DNA of 64,000 bases from Candidatus Methanomethylicia archaeon (GTDB lineage Archaea > Thermoproteota > Methanomethylicia > Nezhaarchaeales > B40-G2), in assembly GCA_029259155.1 (NCBI GenBank), contig JAPDJI010000020.1, forward strand, positions 1 through 64,000, given 5' to 3'. The translations under genes and the position numbers were made by a program. Position 1 is the first letter of the stretch; each line of letters opens with the position of its first letter. This document shows, piece by piece, positions 6,312 to 29,406 of this stretch. Below the pieces are notes generated by a model. It did not search any database and had not been told where the DNA came from. It saw nothing but the letters and a program-made list of their open reading frames with translations.

Positions 6312-7106
6312 TCAAGTATAAGCTTCAGCATCCTCCCAACGCTTACTAAAAGCCTCCTTGAACACCTTGATCAAACCTTCATTCTCGGTGTAGTGAGGAC
6401 GGTAATATCTAGTTTTATGCTCCGTCGCCCATATGAGAAACACAAGCTTGCTATCGTCAACTATGGTGCCACGTAGGGGGTACCAAGGCTCTCTTTGAAC
6501 CCTTACCTCAGCACCTAGGTCTTTAAGCCTTTCAGCCGCTTTCCTAGACTCTTCATCAACCACCCTCATTAACACCTTGACCTTAACTCCTCTCGATTTT
6601 GCGCTTGAAAGCTCCTCGTAGACCTTGTCAAGCCACCCGAAACCAGCAGTAAAAATGTTCACTTCTCGCTGAGCCTCACTTAACATCTTGACCGTCTGAA
6701 GCTCCATGGAGCTTAAAGCTTCGAGCGGCTTCAAAAGCTCCTCTGGCTTAACTCCTAGATGTCTCTCGGCGTAGAAGCCTTCAAGTAAGCTGATTAGCTT
6801 AGATGCATCTCCCCTGAAATGTTCAAGCTTAGCGTTTAATTCCTCTATCTTGGCTTTCAGCAAAGCATTTACCGCTTCCTTTGGCTTAAGTGCTTCGTAG
6901 CTATTGTTGACGAAAGGTTTAAGGAGGCCTTTAGCCGTCATCGCTTTGAGCAGGGTCTCAGCTTCCCTTACGCTGCATCCTAGAAGCTTCACGGCGCCCT
7001 CAAGGTTAATGGAGCCATCCTCCAAGACCTTTAAGTAGAGTTTAGCTTCAGCTTTGGATACACCCATCCTTTCAAGCAAAGATAAAAGCTCATCTATGGA
7101 GGTCAA
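6312..7106 (-). CDS. TrmB-family transcriptional regulator
   Basis: N-terminal wHTH (GVSKAEAKLY...L.AKGL) and C-terminal RGVKVKVL...IVDD effector domain. Confidence 0.8.
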   Translation of the reverse strand: MTSIDELLSLLERMGVSKAEAKLYLKVLEDGSINLEGAVKLLGCSVREAETLLKAMTAKGLLKPFVNNSYEALKPKEAVNALLKAKIEELNAKLEHFRGDASKLISLLEGFYAERHLGVKPEELLKPLEALSSMELQTVKMLSEAQREVNIFTAGFGWLDKVYEELSSAKSRGVKVKVLMRVVDEESRKAAERLKDLGAEVRVQREPWYPLRGTIVDDSKLVFLIWATEHKTRYYRPHYTENEGLIKVFKEAFSKRWEDAEAYT

Positions 7107-7155
7107 GAAAACAACCCGAAGAGGATAAAGGCATAGCAGCTAATTAAAGTCTCCT

Positions 7156-7617
7156 CTAAGATCCTTTAAGGGGTAGCTTGGCCTGAAGCTCCTCATCGTT
7201 TTTAATTGAAGGGTGTGAGGGGTCGACCAGTATTACCTCAAACCATTTATGTCTACCGTCCTCACCCACCCAGTAGCTGCCAAGAACTTTCAAGTTCGGG
7301 TATTTACGGGCTGCTCTCTCCTCAGCTATTTCCCTTAAGCTTCTCCATGGAGAATAACCATAAACACCCATCCTTTTAGGTCTGCGACCGCTCCTAGGCC
7401 TCGGTTTCCTCAATCCTCCCTTCCTCACCTTAACCCTAACCACGACGAAGCCTACCTTCGCTTTATAACCCAGCGACCGAGCCCTATCAATCCTTGTAGG
7501 TTTTTCTACCCTAACTACCGTGGGCTGTCTTCTCCATTCTATTAAACGTCTCTTTAGGAGCTCAGCTAGGAAACCTTCACCAGGTTTCCTCCATGCCTTA
7601 GCCATGTATTTATACAA
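7156..7617 (-). CDS. rpl15e: 50S ribosomal protein L15e (short C-terminus)
   Basis: [41 protein letters not shown]. Confidence 0.95.
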
Positions 7618-7623
7618 AGCTCT

Positions 7624-7986
7624 TCACCCACCCTTCTTTTCTCCCCTTAAAGCCTTCAAAGCCTCTGCTCTCTCTTCAGGAGGGAGGTTCCTAATATAGA
7701 GGTGTCGGGGCTCCACCTTGATTAGCTCCTCTTTACTATCATAGACGTGAGCGTGACCCCTCGTCTTCCAGGCTCTAGCCCTCGTAGTTAACGATTTAAC
7801 AATCACGTGCTCCACGGGAACCCCGAGGAGCTCTGCTATGGTTTTCTTGATTATCCAGCGGTCAGGGGTCCCCGCCCCCTCATGAAACACAGTGAATAAT
7901 ACTTCACGCCTGTTAAGCAGAGGGTTCTCCCTAATTTCCTCCACCTTTAAGGAAGGTTTAGCTACAGTTTCGGTTTCTTCTGTCAT
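7624..7986 (-). CDS. rps24e: 30S ribosomal protein S24e
   Basis: ENPLLNRRE, H.GAGTP.R; ATG at 7986 preferred to the ORF-track start. Confidence 0.92.
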   Translation of the reverse strand: MTEETETVAKPSLKVEEIRENPLLNRREVLFTVFHEGAGTPDRWIIKKTIAELLGVPVEHVIVKSLTTRARAWKTRGHAHVYDSKEELIKVEPRHLYIRNLPPEERAEALKALRGEKKGG

Positions 7987-11523: not shown

Positions 11524-13334
11524 TCACCTCATAGAGGCTTTTGACCTAACCTCCTCGAGCTCTTGGAGAGCTTGAAGCTCATCTTCTGTAAGTTCTCCCT
11601 TATACTTGGAAAGAAGAAGCTTGACTTGATGTCCAGGGACATCCACGTAGAGGACGTCTCCCTCCTTAATCTGTCTACCAACCATCACATCTCCTTTGAT
11701 GGACACTGCCACAGCATACCCCTTCACCGCCTCGTCGACGGGTTTACCCTTATCCTGTATCTGCATTACTATTCCAACGCTTTTGCCGTCATCCTTAATG
11801 AGTGGGTAGCCAGGTCTTATCCGGCCTAACTGAACTTCCACGCCCACGATGGCTGGGTCACTTCTCCTGAATACGTAGCCTGGCAGGAGCTTTATCTTCC
11901 CAGGCCTTATGAGGGAGGCGAACTCTCTTCTACGCTCCTCCTCTCTTAGATGGCTTACCCATTTCTGATAGTCGTCGAAAACCCTGTAGATCACGTTGCT
12001 CCTAAAGACAGGGATCCCTCTCGACTTAATCTCCTCTTCAACCTCGGGCAAGGCCTTAACGTTGAAGGCCAAGATCACCCCCAGCGTCTTGTCCACGTCC
12101 CTAACTATGGAGGCCTCGATCACATCCCTCTTGGTAATAGGACCTACATCAGCCATCCTGATAGGTATACCTAACTCCCTGAGCTTACTAACCATAGCCT
12201 CGAGGGAGCCTAGCGTATCGGCCTTCACCACTACTCCTTCAGCTTCAGTCGAGAACCTTATGCTAGCCAGTTCCTCAATTAGAGTTTTCTTAAGTCCCTC
12301 GACCTCAGCCTCGCTCGAAGCAACTAGCAGAGGCGAGCCTGCTACTACTTCTCCTAAGCCGGGAGCTACGATTCTTACCCCGGCTGCGGCGTAAACCTTA
12401 TCCACCGACTTAAAGCGGTCTTCAGGATCCCTCATTTCATCTAAAGGCTTAGGGAGGAGGAGGGCTCTAACCCTCGTCACCACTGGGCCTGTTAACCCGC
12501 CGAGCACGATGATATCGTTGCGTTTAAGCACACCGTCATGTATGATGGCGTCAACCACCACACCTAGCCCAGGAAGCTCCCTGCACTCAAGCACAGCTCC
12601 CCTAGCTGGACCTTTAGAAACATGTAGCCTACCCATCATATACCTCTGTGTAAGCCCAGCCAGGACAAGGAGAAGGTCAGGGATACCTTCACCTGTTAGA
12701 GCGCTTGTAGGCACGATGGCAAGGGTCTTCGTGAAGTCCTTAACCCTATCATAACGCTCAGCGTTAAAGCCCTCATAGGAAAACTGCTCTACGATCCTAT
12801 AAGTCAACTCCTCAACTCTACGCTGAACCTCAGGGCTTTGAGCCTTAAAGGACTCGATGAAAGACGCATACTCACGCGGCTTCCACCCCAAGATGCGGTC
12901 TATCTTATTGGCCGCGACCACGAAGGGTACCCTACGCTCCTTAAGTATCCTTAAACTCTCATAGGTTATCTCCTCGAAGCCTTCAAGGATATCTATAACT
13001 AGGATAGCTATGTCAGCTATCGACCCTCCTCTCCTACGGAGGTTAACGAAAGCCTCATGACCAGGAGTATCTATCACTAAGAAGCCAGGTATCTTAATCT
13101 CTGCCTTAAACGCCTTGAGTAAAGGGCCACAGAGACGTTCAAGCGCTGTCCAAGGGAGGAAGGAAGCGCCTATATGCTGGGTTTACCATCCAGCAGGGCC
13201 CCCCGCTGGATCATGGCCCCAACCTCCCTGAACATGGTGGCCGTCCCCCTTATTTTATCGAGGAGAAGCGTTTTACCGACGTCCACGTGGCCCAGTACAC
13301 ATATGATAGGCGATCTGACGTACTCTTCAGTCAT
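11524..13334 (-). CDS. infB: Translation initiation factor aIF5B (IF2), two exons (13334-13212 and 13182-11524), 593 aa after splicing
   Basis: Exon 1 [22 protein letters not shown]...REVGAM, exon 2 TQHIGASF...IDTPGHEAF...NKID; frames join only when the 29-nt BHB insert is removed. Confidence 0.93.
13183..13211 (-). other. 29-nt BHB intron in infB pre-mRNA
   Basis: GUUGGG-GCCA-UG^A-UCCAGCGGG-GGGC-CCUGCUGGA-UGGU-AA^A-CCCAGC: 6-bp outer helix, 4-bp central helix, two 3-nt bulges, 9-bp inner helix. Confidence 0.9.
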
Positions 13335-13385
13335 TAGACCCCTCCTCCAAGCTACTTCTAGCGGCGCGTTTCATTAACTTTTGCC

Positions 13386-13832
13386 TTAACTAAGCCAGAA
13401 AGCATCAGCCCTATCGTAGCTATAGATCTCATTGTCCTTAAAGAACACCTTGATCTCGCGTTGAGCGCTCTCCAGAGAATCTGAGGCGTGGACTACGTTT
13501 TTAGTCAAAGATAGTCCAAGGTCCCCTCTAATGGTTCCTGGAGGAGAAGATTTAGGATCCGTTGAGCCGATTAGTCTCCTAACCACCTCGATGGCCTTCT
13601 CCCCCTCCACCACCATTGCGACTACGGGGGACGAGGTTATGTGAGAGACGAGGTCGTTGAAGAAAGCTTTACCTTTATGTACGCTATAGAGCTCCTCCGC
13701 CTCCTCCTTGCTAAGCCACTTCAGCTTGAGCCCAGCTATCTTTAGCCCTTTAGCCTCAACCCTCCTTATGACTTCACCGATCAATCCTCTGACTACACCG
13801 TCGGGCTTAACTAAGAGGAGGGTGCGCTCCAT
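13386..13832 (-). CDS. ndk: Nucleoside diphosphate kinase
   Basis: [27 protein letters not shown]. Confidence 0.97.
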
Positions 13833-21703: not shown

Positions 21704-23068
21704 CTATTCTCTAGCCTTCCACTGCGGTAACACATAGTCCTCCAGCCCAGCAAGTTTAACTCCAGCTATCGCTGCAGCTTCAACGGTTATCGCCCTTAAA
21801 TCCTCCTTGTTAAACTCCTTAACGCTCTTGTGGCCACACGCAGCCGCCAGCTGTGAAACCTCCTTAGTTACTGAATGCGTAAAGTTCACGATCCACTGTG
21901 CAGCTTGGTCGATGCCCTTACCTCCACCAAGCCTCTTCCTCAACTCTGGATCCTGCGTACATATACCTGCTTGACAATTGCCCGTCGAGCATTGACCGCA
22001 CATAGTACATCCAGCGGCGATCTCGATAGCCGACACCATGGCAACTGCGTCAGCGCCTAGGGCTAACGCTTTAGCTACGTCGGCGCCGTCCCTGAAACCG
22101 CCCATGGCTATTAACGCCACATCCTCCCTGACGCCAGCATCCTTCAGCGCTTGGACAGCAGCCGATATGATGGCCAGCGTCGGCAATCCCAAGGATTGGA
22201 TAGCTTGTTGTGGGCTCGCGCCGGTACCACCATACTTGCCGTCAATAGCTATGAAGTCGACGTCGCATTGCGTGGCGGCGTTAACTTCCCTACGTACATT
22301 GCCAGGGCCTAGCTTAACGCCTATGGGCTTTTCATAGCCCACGATGTCCCTTAATATATTGATCACCCTCTTGAGGTCGTCAACCGTCCTGATGTCTACG
22401 TGCCTGGCCGGGCTTAGACAGTCAGTGCCTTTTGGTATACCCCTAGTGTACGCAACCTCGTCGGTGACCTTCTCGCCTAGTAAATGCCCCCCAAACCCGG
22501 GCTTAGCTCCTTGACCGTACTTGATCTCTATGCCATCTGAGTTAATGAGGTACTCTACTGATACGCCCCATCTACCAGACGCAAACTGTACTAAGAGGTA
22601 GCCGTTAGGCTTAACATACTCATACTCTAGCCACTTAATCCTACCATCCTCCGCTCTCTCAGCAACCATGCCACCTTCCCCAGTGTTTGAGGCTGTGCCA
22701 ACCAGGTTGGCTGCCTTAGCGCATGCCAGCTTAAACTCCCTGCTGGTGGCGCCATAGCTCATGGCACCTATCATTATTGGAGTCTTCAGTTTGATAGGCC
22801 TCTTAACTCTACCATTACCGATGGTTACCGTTGTGTCGACGCTCTCCCTATACTGATCGACCGGTGGCGGCGTGCCCAGCCCATGGACAGGCACCAACTG
22901 CAAGTCATCAAAGTCTGGTAGTTTACCGCTGTAGCCAAAGCCTCTAATAATATATTTCCCGGTCTCAGCCCTATACCTTATTTCCTCTAGGACAGCCTTG
23001 TATATACTCGCTCCATAGCGCTTACCTACGATCTTAGCATAAAGCGGGTGCGCCATACGAGCCTGCAC
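21704..23068 (-). CDS. FMN-binding glutamate synthase family protein (GltB2/GlxD-like)
   Basis: MSYGA, NTGEGG, QFASGRWG, EIKYGQGAKPG.GGHL, C..C..C..G.C.AGICTQ. Confidence 0.9.
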   Translation of the reverse strand: MQARMAHPLYAKIVGKRYGASIYKAVLEEIRYRAETGKYIIRGFGYSGKLPDFDDLQLVPVHGLGTPPPVDQYRESVDTTVTIGNGRVKRPIKLKTPIMIGAMSYGATSREFKLACAKAANLVGTASNTGEGGMVAERAEDGRIKWLEYEYVKPNGYLLVQFASGRWGVSVEYLINSDGIEIKYGQGAKPGFGGHLLGEKVTDEVAYTRGIPKGTDCLSPARHVDIRTVDDLKRVINILRDIVGYEKPIGVKLGPGNVRREVNAATQCDVDFIAIDGKYGGTGASPQQAIQSLGLPTLAIISAAVQALKDAGVREDVALIAMGGFRDGADVAKALALGADAVAMVSAIEIAAGCTMCGQCSTGNCQAGICTQDPELRKRLGGGKGIDQAAQWIVNFTHSVTKEVSQLAAACGHKSVKEFNKEDLRAITVEAAAIAGVKLAGLEDYVLPQWKARE

Positions 23069-23758
23069 CTAGCCATAAAACGGTCTCAACTTGATAGGTA
23101 TGATCTTCCTAAATCCCTCGACATTGGTATTTATGCCGTATTTACCTAGTAGCGCTTTAAGCTTCTCCCTATCTTGATCTGTTAAGCTTACCTCTTGGGC
23201 GTTATTTCCTAGACCTTTACACTCACCAGCTATGAAAATTTCACCCCCAACGATCCAATCCCCTAAAGCTTCACCTGCATCCCCGGTAATCACTACCGTA
23301 CCACCTACCATGTAGAGCCCTACACTATCGCCCACTGAGCCGTCAACTATCACCGTTGCCCCCTTTAATAGCTGACCTACACCATCGCCCGCGTCTCCGT
23401 AAACCACCACCGTACCCCCATATGCGTATACACCTATATGATTGCCTGCGGAGCCCCTAACTACCACTTCACCGGCCCACGCGTTGTCTGCCAAGTATGC
23501 TCCCGCGTTACCATTGATTACTATTTTAGGCCCCATTTCACCGCGCTCTTTCTGCTCTCTTCTACCTATTAACATTGCTGCGCGTTCTCCGATATTACCT
23601 TCAACCTCAACCTCGCCACCATCAATCCCCGCTGCCAACCCATAGACTCTTTCAGCGTTCTTAACCTTAACCTTAAAGCCCTTAGCGATAGCCTCCCTTA
23701 TCCTGGCGTTTACTTCCTTTAATGAGAGCCGATAAGCATCTATAAGAACCTCGCCCAT
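23069..23758 (-). CDS. GXGXG beta-helix protein (GltB3/GlxC/FwdC-like)
   Basis: Repeated G.AG..G...GG.V units; directly upstream of the FMN subunit. Confidence 0.85.
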   Translation of the reverse strand: MGEVLIDAYRLSLKEVNARIREAIAKGFKVKVKNAERVYGLAAGIDGGEVEVEGNIGERAAMLIGRREQKERGEMGPKIVINGNAGAYLADNAWAGEVVVRGSAGNHIGVYAYGGTVVVYGDAGDGVGQLLKGATVIVDGSVGDSVGLYMVGGTVVITGDAGEALGDWIVGGEIFIAGECKGLGNNAQEVSLTDQDREKLKALLGKYGINTNVEGFRKIIPIKLRPFYG

Positions 23759-27829: not shown

Positions 27830-27933
27830 TCCCGCCTTAACCCCTTCCTTGCAGGGAGGGAAGAAGGGGGGATGTTAATAAAGCCTTTCCTACATGCGGA
27901 GCTAGGCGTCCATCACCAGGTACAAACTAGGTA

Positions 27934-28037
27934 CGCCGGGGGTGGGACTTGAACCCACGAGGCCCGTAAAGGACCATAGGCTATACGGGGGACGCCTCTC
28001 CAGGCCTACCCCTTCGACCTATCTCGGGCACCCCGGC
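27934..28037 (-). tRNA. tRNA-Ser(GGA) with 15-nt intron at 37/38 (27997-27983)
   Basis: Acceptor GCCGGGG/CCCCGGC, G73, long variable arm, anticodon stem TAGGC/GCCTA; relaxed BHB (C.U mismatch in the central helix). Confidence 0.92.
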
Positions 28038-28070
28038 ATGATGGAGAGCCGCTCAGCTTCATATAAAGCT

Positions 28071-29071
28071 TTACGTCGTTTTACTCTTCCTCCATAGAGG
28101 AGGGTAAGTCCCAGGCTCCATGATCACCCTAGTGGTCCTAGCCACTAAGCCATGTTCAGCCTCTAAAATCTCCTCCGCTGACATTAAGGCTGAGGCTAAC
28201 GCTACTAACTCCCCTTTCTGGGTCATCAACGCTACTTCAGAGCCTTTCTTGATATCGCTCGTTAACCTTAGTACTCCTGGGGCGGCTAAGCTAGCGCCGT
28301 GACATATGGCGTCAACCGCCGTGTCTCTAACCACTATCTTAGGTACTTCCTCCACAACCTTCTCCATAGGCTGCACAGCCCTCCTAAGCCAAGCCTCGTC
28401 TCCGGTCTCCCTCCATAGATCATAGGCATCTTTAAGGTCGTGAAGGGTAACCAGCGTAGAATCCTCTTTAAAGGAGCCGCTTCGCGTACGTCTAAGCTCC
28501 TTCATGTGAGCCCCCACGCCAAGTATGAGGCCTATATCGTGGCAAAGCTTCCTGACATAAGTCCCGGCTTCACAGTGTACTTGCATGAGCACGAGGTTTC
28601 CTTGAACCTCCAGTACTTTAAGTTCGTAGATACGCCTAACCCTAAGCCTCCTCTTCACCGAGGCTCTCAGAGGAGGTTTCTGGTAGATAGGGCCTGTAAA
28701 CTCGCTGCAAACCTTCTTGACTTGGTCTTCGGGGACTGCTCCATGAAGCTGCATCAAGCAGATGTACTCCTTGGACACCTTGGACATCAACCAGAGCAGC
28801 TTCCTAGCTTTATTAAGGGCTATGGGCAGGATCCCTGTAACCTTAGGATAACCCCGCCTCCTCGATGAGGCTCTAGGGTCCCTCCATGCCCAGCCCTCTC
28901 CACACCCAATATTCGCTTAACCCAAGCGGTCACTTCATGGCTAGTTGGGCCAGGAGGCTTATCCAGGTTAATGACCCCTTTCTCCAAGTGCTGCTGGATG
29001 GTCCTCTCCTCAGGTCTACAACCATAATCCCAGAGAGGCTCCTCCTCATCTTTAACCAAGTACTCGTGCAT
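28071..29071 (-). CDS. cbf5: H/ACA pseudouridine synthase Cbf5, two exons (29071-28873 and 28849-28071), 325 aa after splicing
   Basis: DKPPGPTSHE, GHGGTL-D-PKVTG restored by removing 23 nt, GTYVR, PUA domain. Confidence 0.95.
28850..28872 (-). other. 23-nt BHB intron in cbf5 pre-mRNA splitting the catalytic Asp codon
   Basis: GGGA-CCCU-AG^A-GCCUC-AUCGAG-GAGGC-GGGG-UU^A-UCCU; the join gives G+AU = Asp. Confidence 0.93.
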
Positions 29072-29121
29072 CGATGCACCCTGCGAAAAGACATGAAGCT
29101 GCTTGATAAGCTTTAGCTTCA

Positions 29122-29406
29122 CTAAGCCAGTTGAGGTTTAACCTTAACCTTCATGAAGTTCAGCTTACCCTCAGCCTCCAACGCCCGCTTAACCTCGTCG
29201 TCAGAAGCTCCCTTTGAAACCTTAACCGTGTCCTCGAGGGGTATAAGGTGCTTAATGTTAGCCCTTCTACGCTTAACTCCACTGATCTCCTTAGGCCCAG
29301 TGACCAACGCGAAGTTGTCATCTATTAAGTCAACTATCACGCACTTTAACCCAGCTTCACGCCCCGTCGTCTTGACGCAAATCCTACCCACCTCGATCGA
29401 CGGCAA
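29122..29406 (-). CDS. rpl14e: 50S ribosomal protein L14e
   Basis: EVGRICVKTTGREAG.KCVIVD, GVKRRR.NIKHL. Confidence 0.95.
   Translation of the reverse strand: MPSIEVGRICVKTTGREAGLKCVIVDLIDDNFALVTGPKEISGVKRRRANIKHLIPLEDTVKVSKGASDDEVKRALEAEGKLNFMKVKVKPQLA

Follow-up and report, generated by a model that had tools for sequence, protein, structure and literature searches.

In the genome of a Candidatus Methanomethylicia archaeon of the order Nezhaarchaeales, the mRNA of the translation initiation factor aIF5B (gene infB) very probably carries a genuine archaeal intron within its coding sequence, which folds into a motif of the bulge-helix-bulge (BHB) type and is removed by ordinary BHB splicing. 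The gene lies in a stretch of 64,000 nucleotides of contig JAPDJI010000020.1 (assembly GCA_029259155.1), which we call the window and to which coordinates refer unless another locus is named. The parts of the gene and of the motif are as follows.

13212..13334, minus strand: aIF5B exon 1, 41 codons, with the ATG at 13334 and the P-loop GHVDVGKT inside (from the list of open reading frames, ORFs); it matches positions 6-44 of the 598 of profile NF003078 (E 1.9e-14).
13183..13211, minus strand: the 29-nt BHB intron, from the third base of bulge 1 to the second base of bulge 2.
11524..13182, minus strand: aIF5B exon 2, 552 codons plus stop, opening at the switch-I Thr codon of TQHIG; it matches positions 45-592 of the 598 of NF003078 (E 9.9e-231).
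13176..13223, minus strand: the whole BHB motif, described by its sequence, a per-genome parse, pair counts and an RNAalifold consensus.

Read without splicing, the minus-strand ORF that begins at the ATG at 13334 includes the P-loop and stops after 54 aa, and the remainder of aIF5B follows in a different frame, where the ORF list shows no start codon at the opening of exon 2 and the longest ORF with a start codon begins only at 13077 and encodes 517 aa. A preliminary description of the window had already claimed that the ORF track cuts aIF5B and leaves its P-loop upstream in another frame, that the unspliced product is 54 aa long, and that removing a 29-nt insert at 13183-13211 gives a 593-aa ORF; the ORF list bears out the first two claims and a scripted deletion the third. 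This deletion results in a single 593-aa ORF that reads ...EVGAM-TQHIGASF... across the junction. The profile positions of the two exons abut exactly between 44 and 45 of NF003078, the NCBIfam/NCBI model for aIF5B/IF-2 with a length of 598, and since exon 1 covers positions 6-44 and exon 2 positions 45-592, the junction neither loses nor adds a residue. The insert is located between the P-loop and the switch-I Thr of aIF5B, and this Thr of TQHIG belongs to the switch-I/G2 motif of translational GTPases. In the window, the first base of the intron and the first base of exon 2 are both A, so that the cut position can be read from the sequence alone to 1 nt at best.

The aIF5B gene is single in this genome, a metagenome-assembled genome (MAG) of 47 contigs and 1.55 Mb that is 94% complete; the other aIF5B match in it is a weak one (19.3 bits, E 3.7e-4), and the intact second infB that, according to the preliminary description, would speak against an intron if transcripts were also never spliced was not found. 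A search of window positions 12900-13500 against Rfam, with E values up to 1, returned 0 matches; for this reason, and because a ribozyme intron could not fit into 29 nt, a self-splicing group I or group II intron or a member of another Rfam family was rejected.

The RNA of the minus strand contains an outer helix of 6 base pairs (bp), in which 13223-13218 pair with 13181-13176 (GUUGGG/CCCAGC), a central helix of 4 bp, in which 13217-13214 pair with 13188-13185 (GCCA/UGGU), the bulges UGA (13213-13211) and AAA (13184-13182), and a 9-bp inner stem with the 4-nt loop GGGC. The intron at 13183-13211 is thus made up, in order, of the bulge-1 base, the 9-bp stem with its 4-nt loop, the 3' strand of the central helix and the bulge-2 bases. 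The motif in the window has the two bulges and the 4-bp helix of a substrate of the endonuclease EndA, and cuts after the second base of each bulge would lead to a functional product, as judged by the 593-aa ORF, the 44/45 junction and the junction of relatives. The minimum-free-energy structure that ViennaRNA gives for the window has the two outer helices and the stem drawn slightly differently from the strict BHB; RNAalifold, run on 39 distinct homologues with no structure supplied, returns the outer helix, the succession of 3-nt bulge, 4-bp helix and 3-nt bulge, and the stem. The strict BHB of the preliminary description therefore stands in its outer, central and inner helices and its bulges, and fails in the proposed AGGGAG/CUUCCU extension of the outer helix, which is missing from the RNAalifold consensus and would require a 9-nt internal loop.

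The interruption is shared by many members of the class. A search with the exon-2 protein against 62 class genomes, followed by examination of the 5' regions, found aIF5B in 60 of them, of which 58 are readable (G053 and G059 were left out, as contig ends cut the site). Of the 58 readable genomes, 41 have an insert that separates the Thr codon from the preceding Met/Ile codon, and the other 17 have none. The preliminary description had proposed to look in relatives for variable inserts that keep the BHB at the same site, and this is what the class holds: the site is kept, sequence and length are not, and the lengths range from 22 to 33 nt (22 nt in 4 genomes, 25 nt in 4, 27 nt in 16, 29 nt in 3, 30 nt in 8, 31 nt in 2 and 33 nt in 4), spanning all three phases. 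The central helix is fully paired (4/4) in 40 of the 41 homologues. When 185,579 species genomes were scanned with a pattern, 34 loci came up, labelled Candidatus Methanomethylicota, Methanomethylicus, Methanosuratincola, Nezhaarchaeota/-ales, and unclassified Thermoproteota or Nitrososphaerota; 33 of them parse with the P-loop upstream (L065 does not), and two closed genomes are among the 34, CP130488.1 of M. petrocarbonis LWZ-6 and CP186953.1 of M. verstraetei LCB70. Judging by these sequences, the insert is not an artefact.

By family, the intron is present in f1, f2, f3, f5 and f9 and absent in f4, f6, f7 and f8; in Methanosuratincola, a 27-nt intron is kept in all 8 readable genomes, and alleles without the intron are found in some members of genera g12 and g20 and in all of g14. 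Four intron-less genomes of family f5 (G022, G024, G034 and G048) read ...ATG-AC(C/G)CA..., which is the exact predicted ligation product, and in three of these four a paired base is relaxed (GGA, GGT GCA, ACG). In a tree of 63 spliced aIF5B proteins (G033 and G048, with fewer than 500 aa, were dropped), the Nezhaarchaeales-like clade is intron-bearing in 15 of 15 members and the clade of f9 and f5 in 26 of 29, and at least 4 state changes are required; the deep branches are poorly separated and long branches are joined (G229 with f6), and the tree gives neither a root nor the number of gains. The simplest reading of these data is that precise losses took place within f5 (G024 together with G034, G022, and G048, which is outside the tree).

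Annotation pipelines have overlooked the intron. The public aIF5B calls of intron-bearing relatives are 490-565 aa long, have no PF01926 hit and are missing the P-loop, and those of intron-less genes have 590-612 aa. Shortened calls are P0001-P0011, P0023, P0032, P0035, P0041, P0064 and P0066, and one NCBI entry, an IF-2 of a Candidatus Nezhaarchaeales archaeon with 549 aa, may serve as an example.

The variation among the inserts follows the predicted fold. Our set comprises 41 sequences, 38 of them distinct, and MAFFT places all length variation in the hairpin loop, so that one structure string fits all 41 sequences. The proportion of paired cells is 93.2%, and a displacement of the partner column by 1-3 positions lowers it to 28.7-43.8%; the cells changed on both sides number 122 versus 46.7 in shuffles, and the covariation score is 0.466 versus 0.171 in shuffles, a value attained by 0 of 500 of them. 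All 9 pairs of the inner stem present double compensatory changes. The columns of the outer and central helices are near-invariant or show only G-C/G-U and U-A/U-G switches, and these two helices appear to rest on conservation, not on compensatory change. The Gly-Ala codons GGG GCC, which form part of the helices, are found in 41 of 41 intron-bearing genes and are variable in intron-less genes.

All 28 introns that are in frame (27, 30 and 33 nt) hold an in-frame stop, which is located at codon 2, 3, 4, 5, 6 or the last one, and composition-preserving shuffles have a stop in 28% on average; the genomes are related, so that this statistic carries no valid P value, and the bulge in part determines the terminal UAA/UAG. 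The stops would fit selection against read-through of the unspliced message, although they are suggestive only.

Evidence that bears on removal of the intron comes from RNA libraries of a cultured relative, Methanosuratincola, for which positions 6600-7900 of locus L051 were compared with public runs. In this locus, positions 6914-6940 are the intron predicted from the sequence; its first three bases are the same as the first three of exon 2, and the repetition makes the cut ambiguous by up to 3 nt. The runs are as follows.

Run X2, RNA-Seq, 2024: one contig over the whole stretch, with exactly 27 letters absent at 6914; depth figure 3203.
Run X3, RNA-Seq, 2024: one contig over the whole stretch, with exactly 27 letters absent at 6914; depth figure 4151.
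Run X1, labelled as metatranscriptomic, whole-genome shotgun, and flagged as probably DNA: 6600-7132 covered without gap, with the 27 letters kept.

The counterpart of the junction that the preliminary description had expected in RNA-Seq data is, in a relative, the absence of the homologous 27 nt, with the reservation that it is taken from contigs of a strain that is not identical to the reference.

Several observations weigh against our interpretation and have to be set beside this evidence. Loose BHBs (a 4-bp outer, a 4-bp central and a 4-bp inner helix, with G-U pairs allowed and 18-150 nt) number 3840 in the 1.55-Mb genome, approximately the expectation from base pairing; 46 of these 3840 restore an ORF compared with 400 of 38400 random deletions, which is no excess, and the stability of the 96-nt region is ordinary with respect to shuffles (z = -0.76). 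The RNA evidence comes from a relative and not from the organism of the window, and it consists of assembled contigs, not reads, which cannot reveal minor forms; in run X9, where raw reads were used, 0 reads aligned and the run offers no test. The strain of X2 and X3 departs from the reference at 11 positions in 1301 and equals none of the compared genomes, the reference being the only one above 90%, with 0 of the 11 variants; its contigs were set against DNA from other samples, and intron-less alleles occur in two sister genera. Finally, the intron is located only 123 nt from the start codon, and splicing there would have to outrun the ribosomes coupled to transcription. The motif by itself is weak evidence. 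What goes beyond chance is the combination of an exact repair of an essential gene at the 44/45 junction, the same site in 41 genomes, and the covariation.

Among the alternatives, the one that survives best is that the intron is already gone from the DNA of the strain behind the RNA contigs, in which case splicing would be unobserved. The 11 differences in 1301 positions, the intron-less alleles within g12 and g20 and throughout g14, and the inability of contigs to show minor forms all leave room for it. The two runs without the insert are, however, precisely the two labelled RNA-Seq, and the 27 nt are kept in X1, which carries 2 of the 11 variants. We consider it quite unlikely that the DNA of the RNA-run strain lacks the intron, because all 8 readable Methanosuratincola genomes keep it, and the comparative evidence for a functional BHB would stand even if this loss had occurred.

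It is slightly less likely still that the insert is removed or skipped by other means, such as translational bypassing, programmed frameshifting or the action of another RNase. A stable hairpin followed by stops superficially resembles what is reported of the bypass in phage T4 gene 60, and under BHB splicing the cutting enzyme is itself deduced from the motif. Nevertheless, the RNA-library contigs without the 27 nt place the removal at the level of RNA (or DNA) and not at the ribosome; the codon before the insert, ATG, and the one after it, ACC, do not match as a take-off and a landing codon should; all three phases are represented among the lengths of 22-33 nt, so that a single frameshift rule cannot fit; and the conserved features, 3-nt bulges 4 bp apart, are those that define an EndA substrate. 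A broken gene, be it a pseudogene, an artefact of assembly or sequencing, or a protein made as two polypeptides, is what the two ORFs of the gene callers and the relatives' public calls of 490-565 aa without a P-loop would suggest at first sight, but its probability is negligible, given that this is the sole aIF5B gene of the genome, that the same interruption is found in 41 independent assemblies of the class with two closed genomes among them, that the insert covaries as RNA between exons conserved as protein, and that the head of exon 2 lacks a start codon while all 28 in-frame inserts contain stops.

Under BHB splicing of the aIF5B mRNA, the last 10 bases of exon 1 would be paired, forming the 4-bp central helix with the 3' end of the intron and the 6-bp outer helix with the start of exon 2. 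The intron's own hairpin would form the inner helix, and the two 3-nt bulges would be exposed on opposite strands. A heteromeric alpha/beta EndA would then cut after the second base of each bulge, RtcB would ligate the exons, and the excised intron would probably leave as a small circle; the same steps would take place in the organism of the window. Only the spliced mRNA would encode an aIF5B with both P-loop and switch I, and the unspliced one would give the 54-aa peptide.

The machinery that this scheme calls for is encoded in the genome of the window. Two EndA paralogues are found over the Pfam cut-off: an alpha-like ORF of 183 aa, which aligns to the C-terminal catalytic half of the fused-EndA models of NCBIfam, and a beta-like ORF of 209 aa, which aligns to the N-terminal (beta/structural) half and weakly to beta-subunit models. 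The presence of alpha and beta paralogues suggests a heteromeric EndA, the form that has been linked to cbf5 splicing in the parts of the study by Yokobori et al. (2009, PMC2738675) that deal with the enzyme. RtcB is present (593 bits), and ARAGORN calls introns in 13 of 41 tRNA genes. The assignment of the cut to EndA itself is suggested by the motif. The preliminary description had proposed that aIF5B depends here on splicing by the tRNA machinery; the junction, the covariation, the single gene, the machinery and the contigs of the relative support this dependence, with splicing itself indicated for the homologous intron of the relative, in assembled contigs only.

The same window contains a second BHB intron, in the gene cbf5.

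28071-29137 (approximate), minus strand: cbf5.
28850-28872, minus strand: cbf5 intron, 23 nt, at the catalytic Asp codon (G-AT).

This intron has the outer helix GGGA/UCCU, the central helix CCCU/GGGG, the bulges AGA and UUA and a 5-bp stem, and its removal joins ...GHGGTL to DPKVTGILPIAL. The site is the one already known for cbf5 introns; the lineage lies outside the 2009 survey. Across the class, where the status of cbf5 was judged by open-frame length only, the gene is interrupted (260-291 aa open) in f1, f2, f3, f4, f7 and f8 and mostly intact (more than 320 aa) in f5; the differing family distributions of the cbf5 and aIF5B introns imply separate histories. Directly downstream of cbf5, on the same strand, we also observe a tRNA-Ser(GGA) gene (27933-28038, minus strand), to which ARAGORN, with intron detection, assigns a 15-nt intron; the default scan does not include it.

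The cbf5 pre-mRNA intron of Crenarchaeota, reportedly described by Watanabe and co-workers in 2002, is the closest of the known systems. The aIF5B intron works like it: both are short BHB introns in a coding sequence, with the cut (predicted in the case of aIF5B) between the second and third bulge bases; both interrupt the gene where a key residue of the catalytic site is encoded, occur in lineages with heteromeric EndA, and are subject to precise loss in particular lineages. The mechanism class is the same, the essential host gene is new, and the intron is widespread. The differences are that the host here is the translational GTPase aIF5B, that the taxa are Nezhaarchaeales, Methanomethylicales and other Thermoproteota, and that the distributions of the two introns within the class are unlike each other; the aIF5B motif is, moreover, a strict BHB, in contrast to the majority of cbf5 introns, which sections of PMC2738675 class as unconventional BHBs. 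Membership of the aIF5B intron in the cbf5 intron family was rejected, as its host is aIF5B and the cbf5 intron at 28850-28872 is a separate element.

Another EndA substrate within an mRNA is the BHB intron in the 5' untranslated region (5' UTR) of Haloferax volcanii HVO_1309, for which sections of Schwarz et al. (2020, PMC7714728) present circular-RNA sequencing and in vitro cleavage; unlike the aIF5B intron, it lies in an untranslated leader, so that its splicing restores no reading frame. The BHB introns of archaeal tRNA and rRNA have their motif geometry in common with the aIF5B intron and presumably the enzymes as well. In contrast to them, the exons of aIF5B are mRNA, and its helices are built from codons, in which protein and RNA constraints overlap. 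Outside the Archaea, HAC1 and XBP1 mRNAs are cut at stem-loops independently of the spliceosome, joined in animals by an RtcB-type ligase, and thereby changed in frame and in the protein that they yield. Their endonuclease is IRE1 and the reaction is regulated by stress, while for aIF5B EndA is the presumed enzyme; this splicing is touched on in a passage of PMC13149111.

As for earlier descriptions, Yokobori et al. (2009, PMC2738675) state, in the portion consulted here, that archaeal pre-mRNA splicing was confirmed only for cbf5; the corresponding portion of Schwarz et al. (2020, PMC7714728) names cbf5 as the only further example of a BHB intron and adds their own 5'-UTR case; and in the excerpts of a 2025 endonuclease paper (PMC12397907), the matches for pre-mRNA, mRNA or protein-coding are references to cbf5 only. 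A full-text literature search, outside of which fall most subscription journals and the supplements, found no description of an intron in aIF5B/infB, in agreement with the preliminary description, which had put it forward as a candidate undescribed intron. After cbf5, aIF5B would be only the second protein-coding gene of the Archaea for which a need of splicing is known.

The intron extends beyond the class. In a sample of 401 genomes of the phylum, scanned with the pattern GGGGSSATR...ACYCARCAYRT for the exon flanks, which makes the distribution a lower bound, 55 genomes matched, compared with 3 for a reversed control pattern. The class members account for 41 of the 55 matches. A further 12 genomes (G229, G223, G193, G082, G103, G166, G117, G152, G076, G083, G090 and G181) have canonical BHBs of 17-24 nt at the same aIF5B site, in the exon context GGG GGG AT(A/G); they belong to five families, f43, f40, f15, f22 and f23 (loci L100, L114, L115, L110-L113 and L119-L123), and in f15 the switch-I intron is found in 1 of 17 sampled genomes. 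The remaining 2 of the 55 are outside aIF5B: G121, and G282, the latter by its position relative to a phylum-wide protein search (best 150 of 402 rows).

A second intron site exists in aIF5B, inside the P-loop GH(V/I)DxGKT, where it separates the His codon from the Val/Ile codon. In f22 it is occupied in all 6 genomes by canonical BHBs of 17-22 nt (L110-L113, L116, L118), and in f29 both genomes of genus g60 have inserts of 29-31 nt there, whose 3' bulge is 2 nt long or offset (L101, L117). Four f22 genomes carry both introns together. The counts for the second site and for the genomes outside the class are lower bounds, and the aIF5B intron, far from being a single case, is old and widespread in several Thermoproteota lineages.

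The genome-wide BHB filter, which asked for 80 open codons on each side, recovered cbf5 and missed the aIF5B intron, with its 41 codons upstream. As a source of further mRNA introns, the genome scan was rejected, its 46 ORF-restoring loose motifs being no more than random deletions give. Four individual candidates were rejected as well. At window positions 23036-23071 (minus strand), between two adjacent ORFs with glutamate-synthase domains that are separated by a stop codon and a gap, there is a weak BHB-like motif with two G-U pairs in its central helix, whose removal fuses both ORFs in frame; we judged it a chance adjacency. Outside the window, C3:2057-2088 is in a family-1 glycosyltransferase whose translation on both sides suggests a simple frameshift, and C29:2126-2151 and C3:71339-71373 are unconvincing.

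The intron could conceivably also act as a control point, in an autoregulatory loop for aIF5B, although we regard this as rather doubtful. A ribosome that arrived before EndA would melt the BHB, which is built from exon codons, and produce the 54-aa stub; since the intron is 41 codons from the start, its helices are made of exon codons and stops are present in 28 of 28 in-frame introns, an early ribosome would yield the stub only. The output of aIF5B would then fall with fast initiation on its own mRNA and rise with slow initiation. If this were the case, the supply of aIF5B would be tied to the capacity of EndA and RtcB for tRNA splicing, and selection, not accident, would lie behind the recurrence of BHB introns in at least 11 families at two G-motif sites of this gene.

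mRNA splicing by the tRNA machinery would be more than the curiosity of one gene, and its host here is an essential and universally conserved translation factor. The intron exposes a systematic annotation error, and similar short introns may hide in other archaeal genes regarded as "frameshifted". Methanosuratincola provides cultured hosts in which BHB splicing of mRNA can be studied, and the overlapping constraints of RNA and protein, together with repeated precise loss, make the aIF5B intron a clean system for the study of intron gain and loss.

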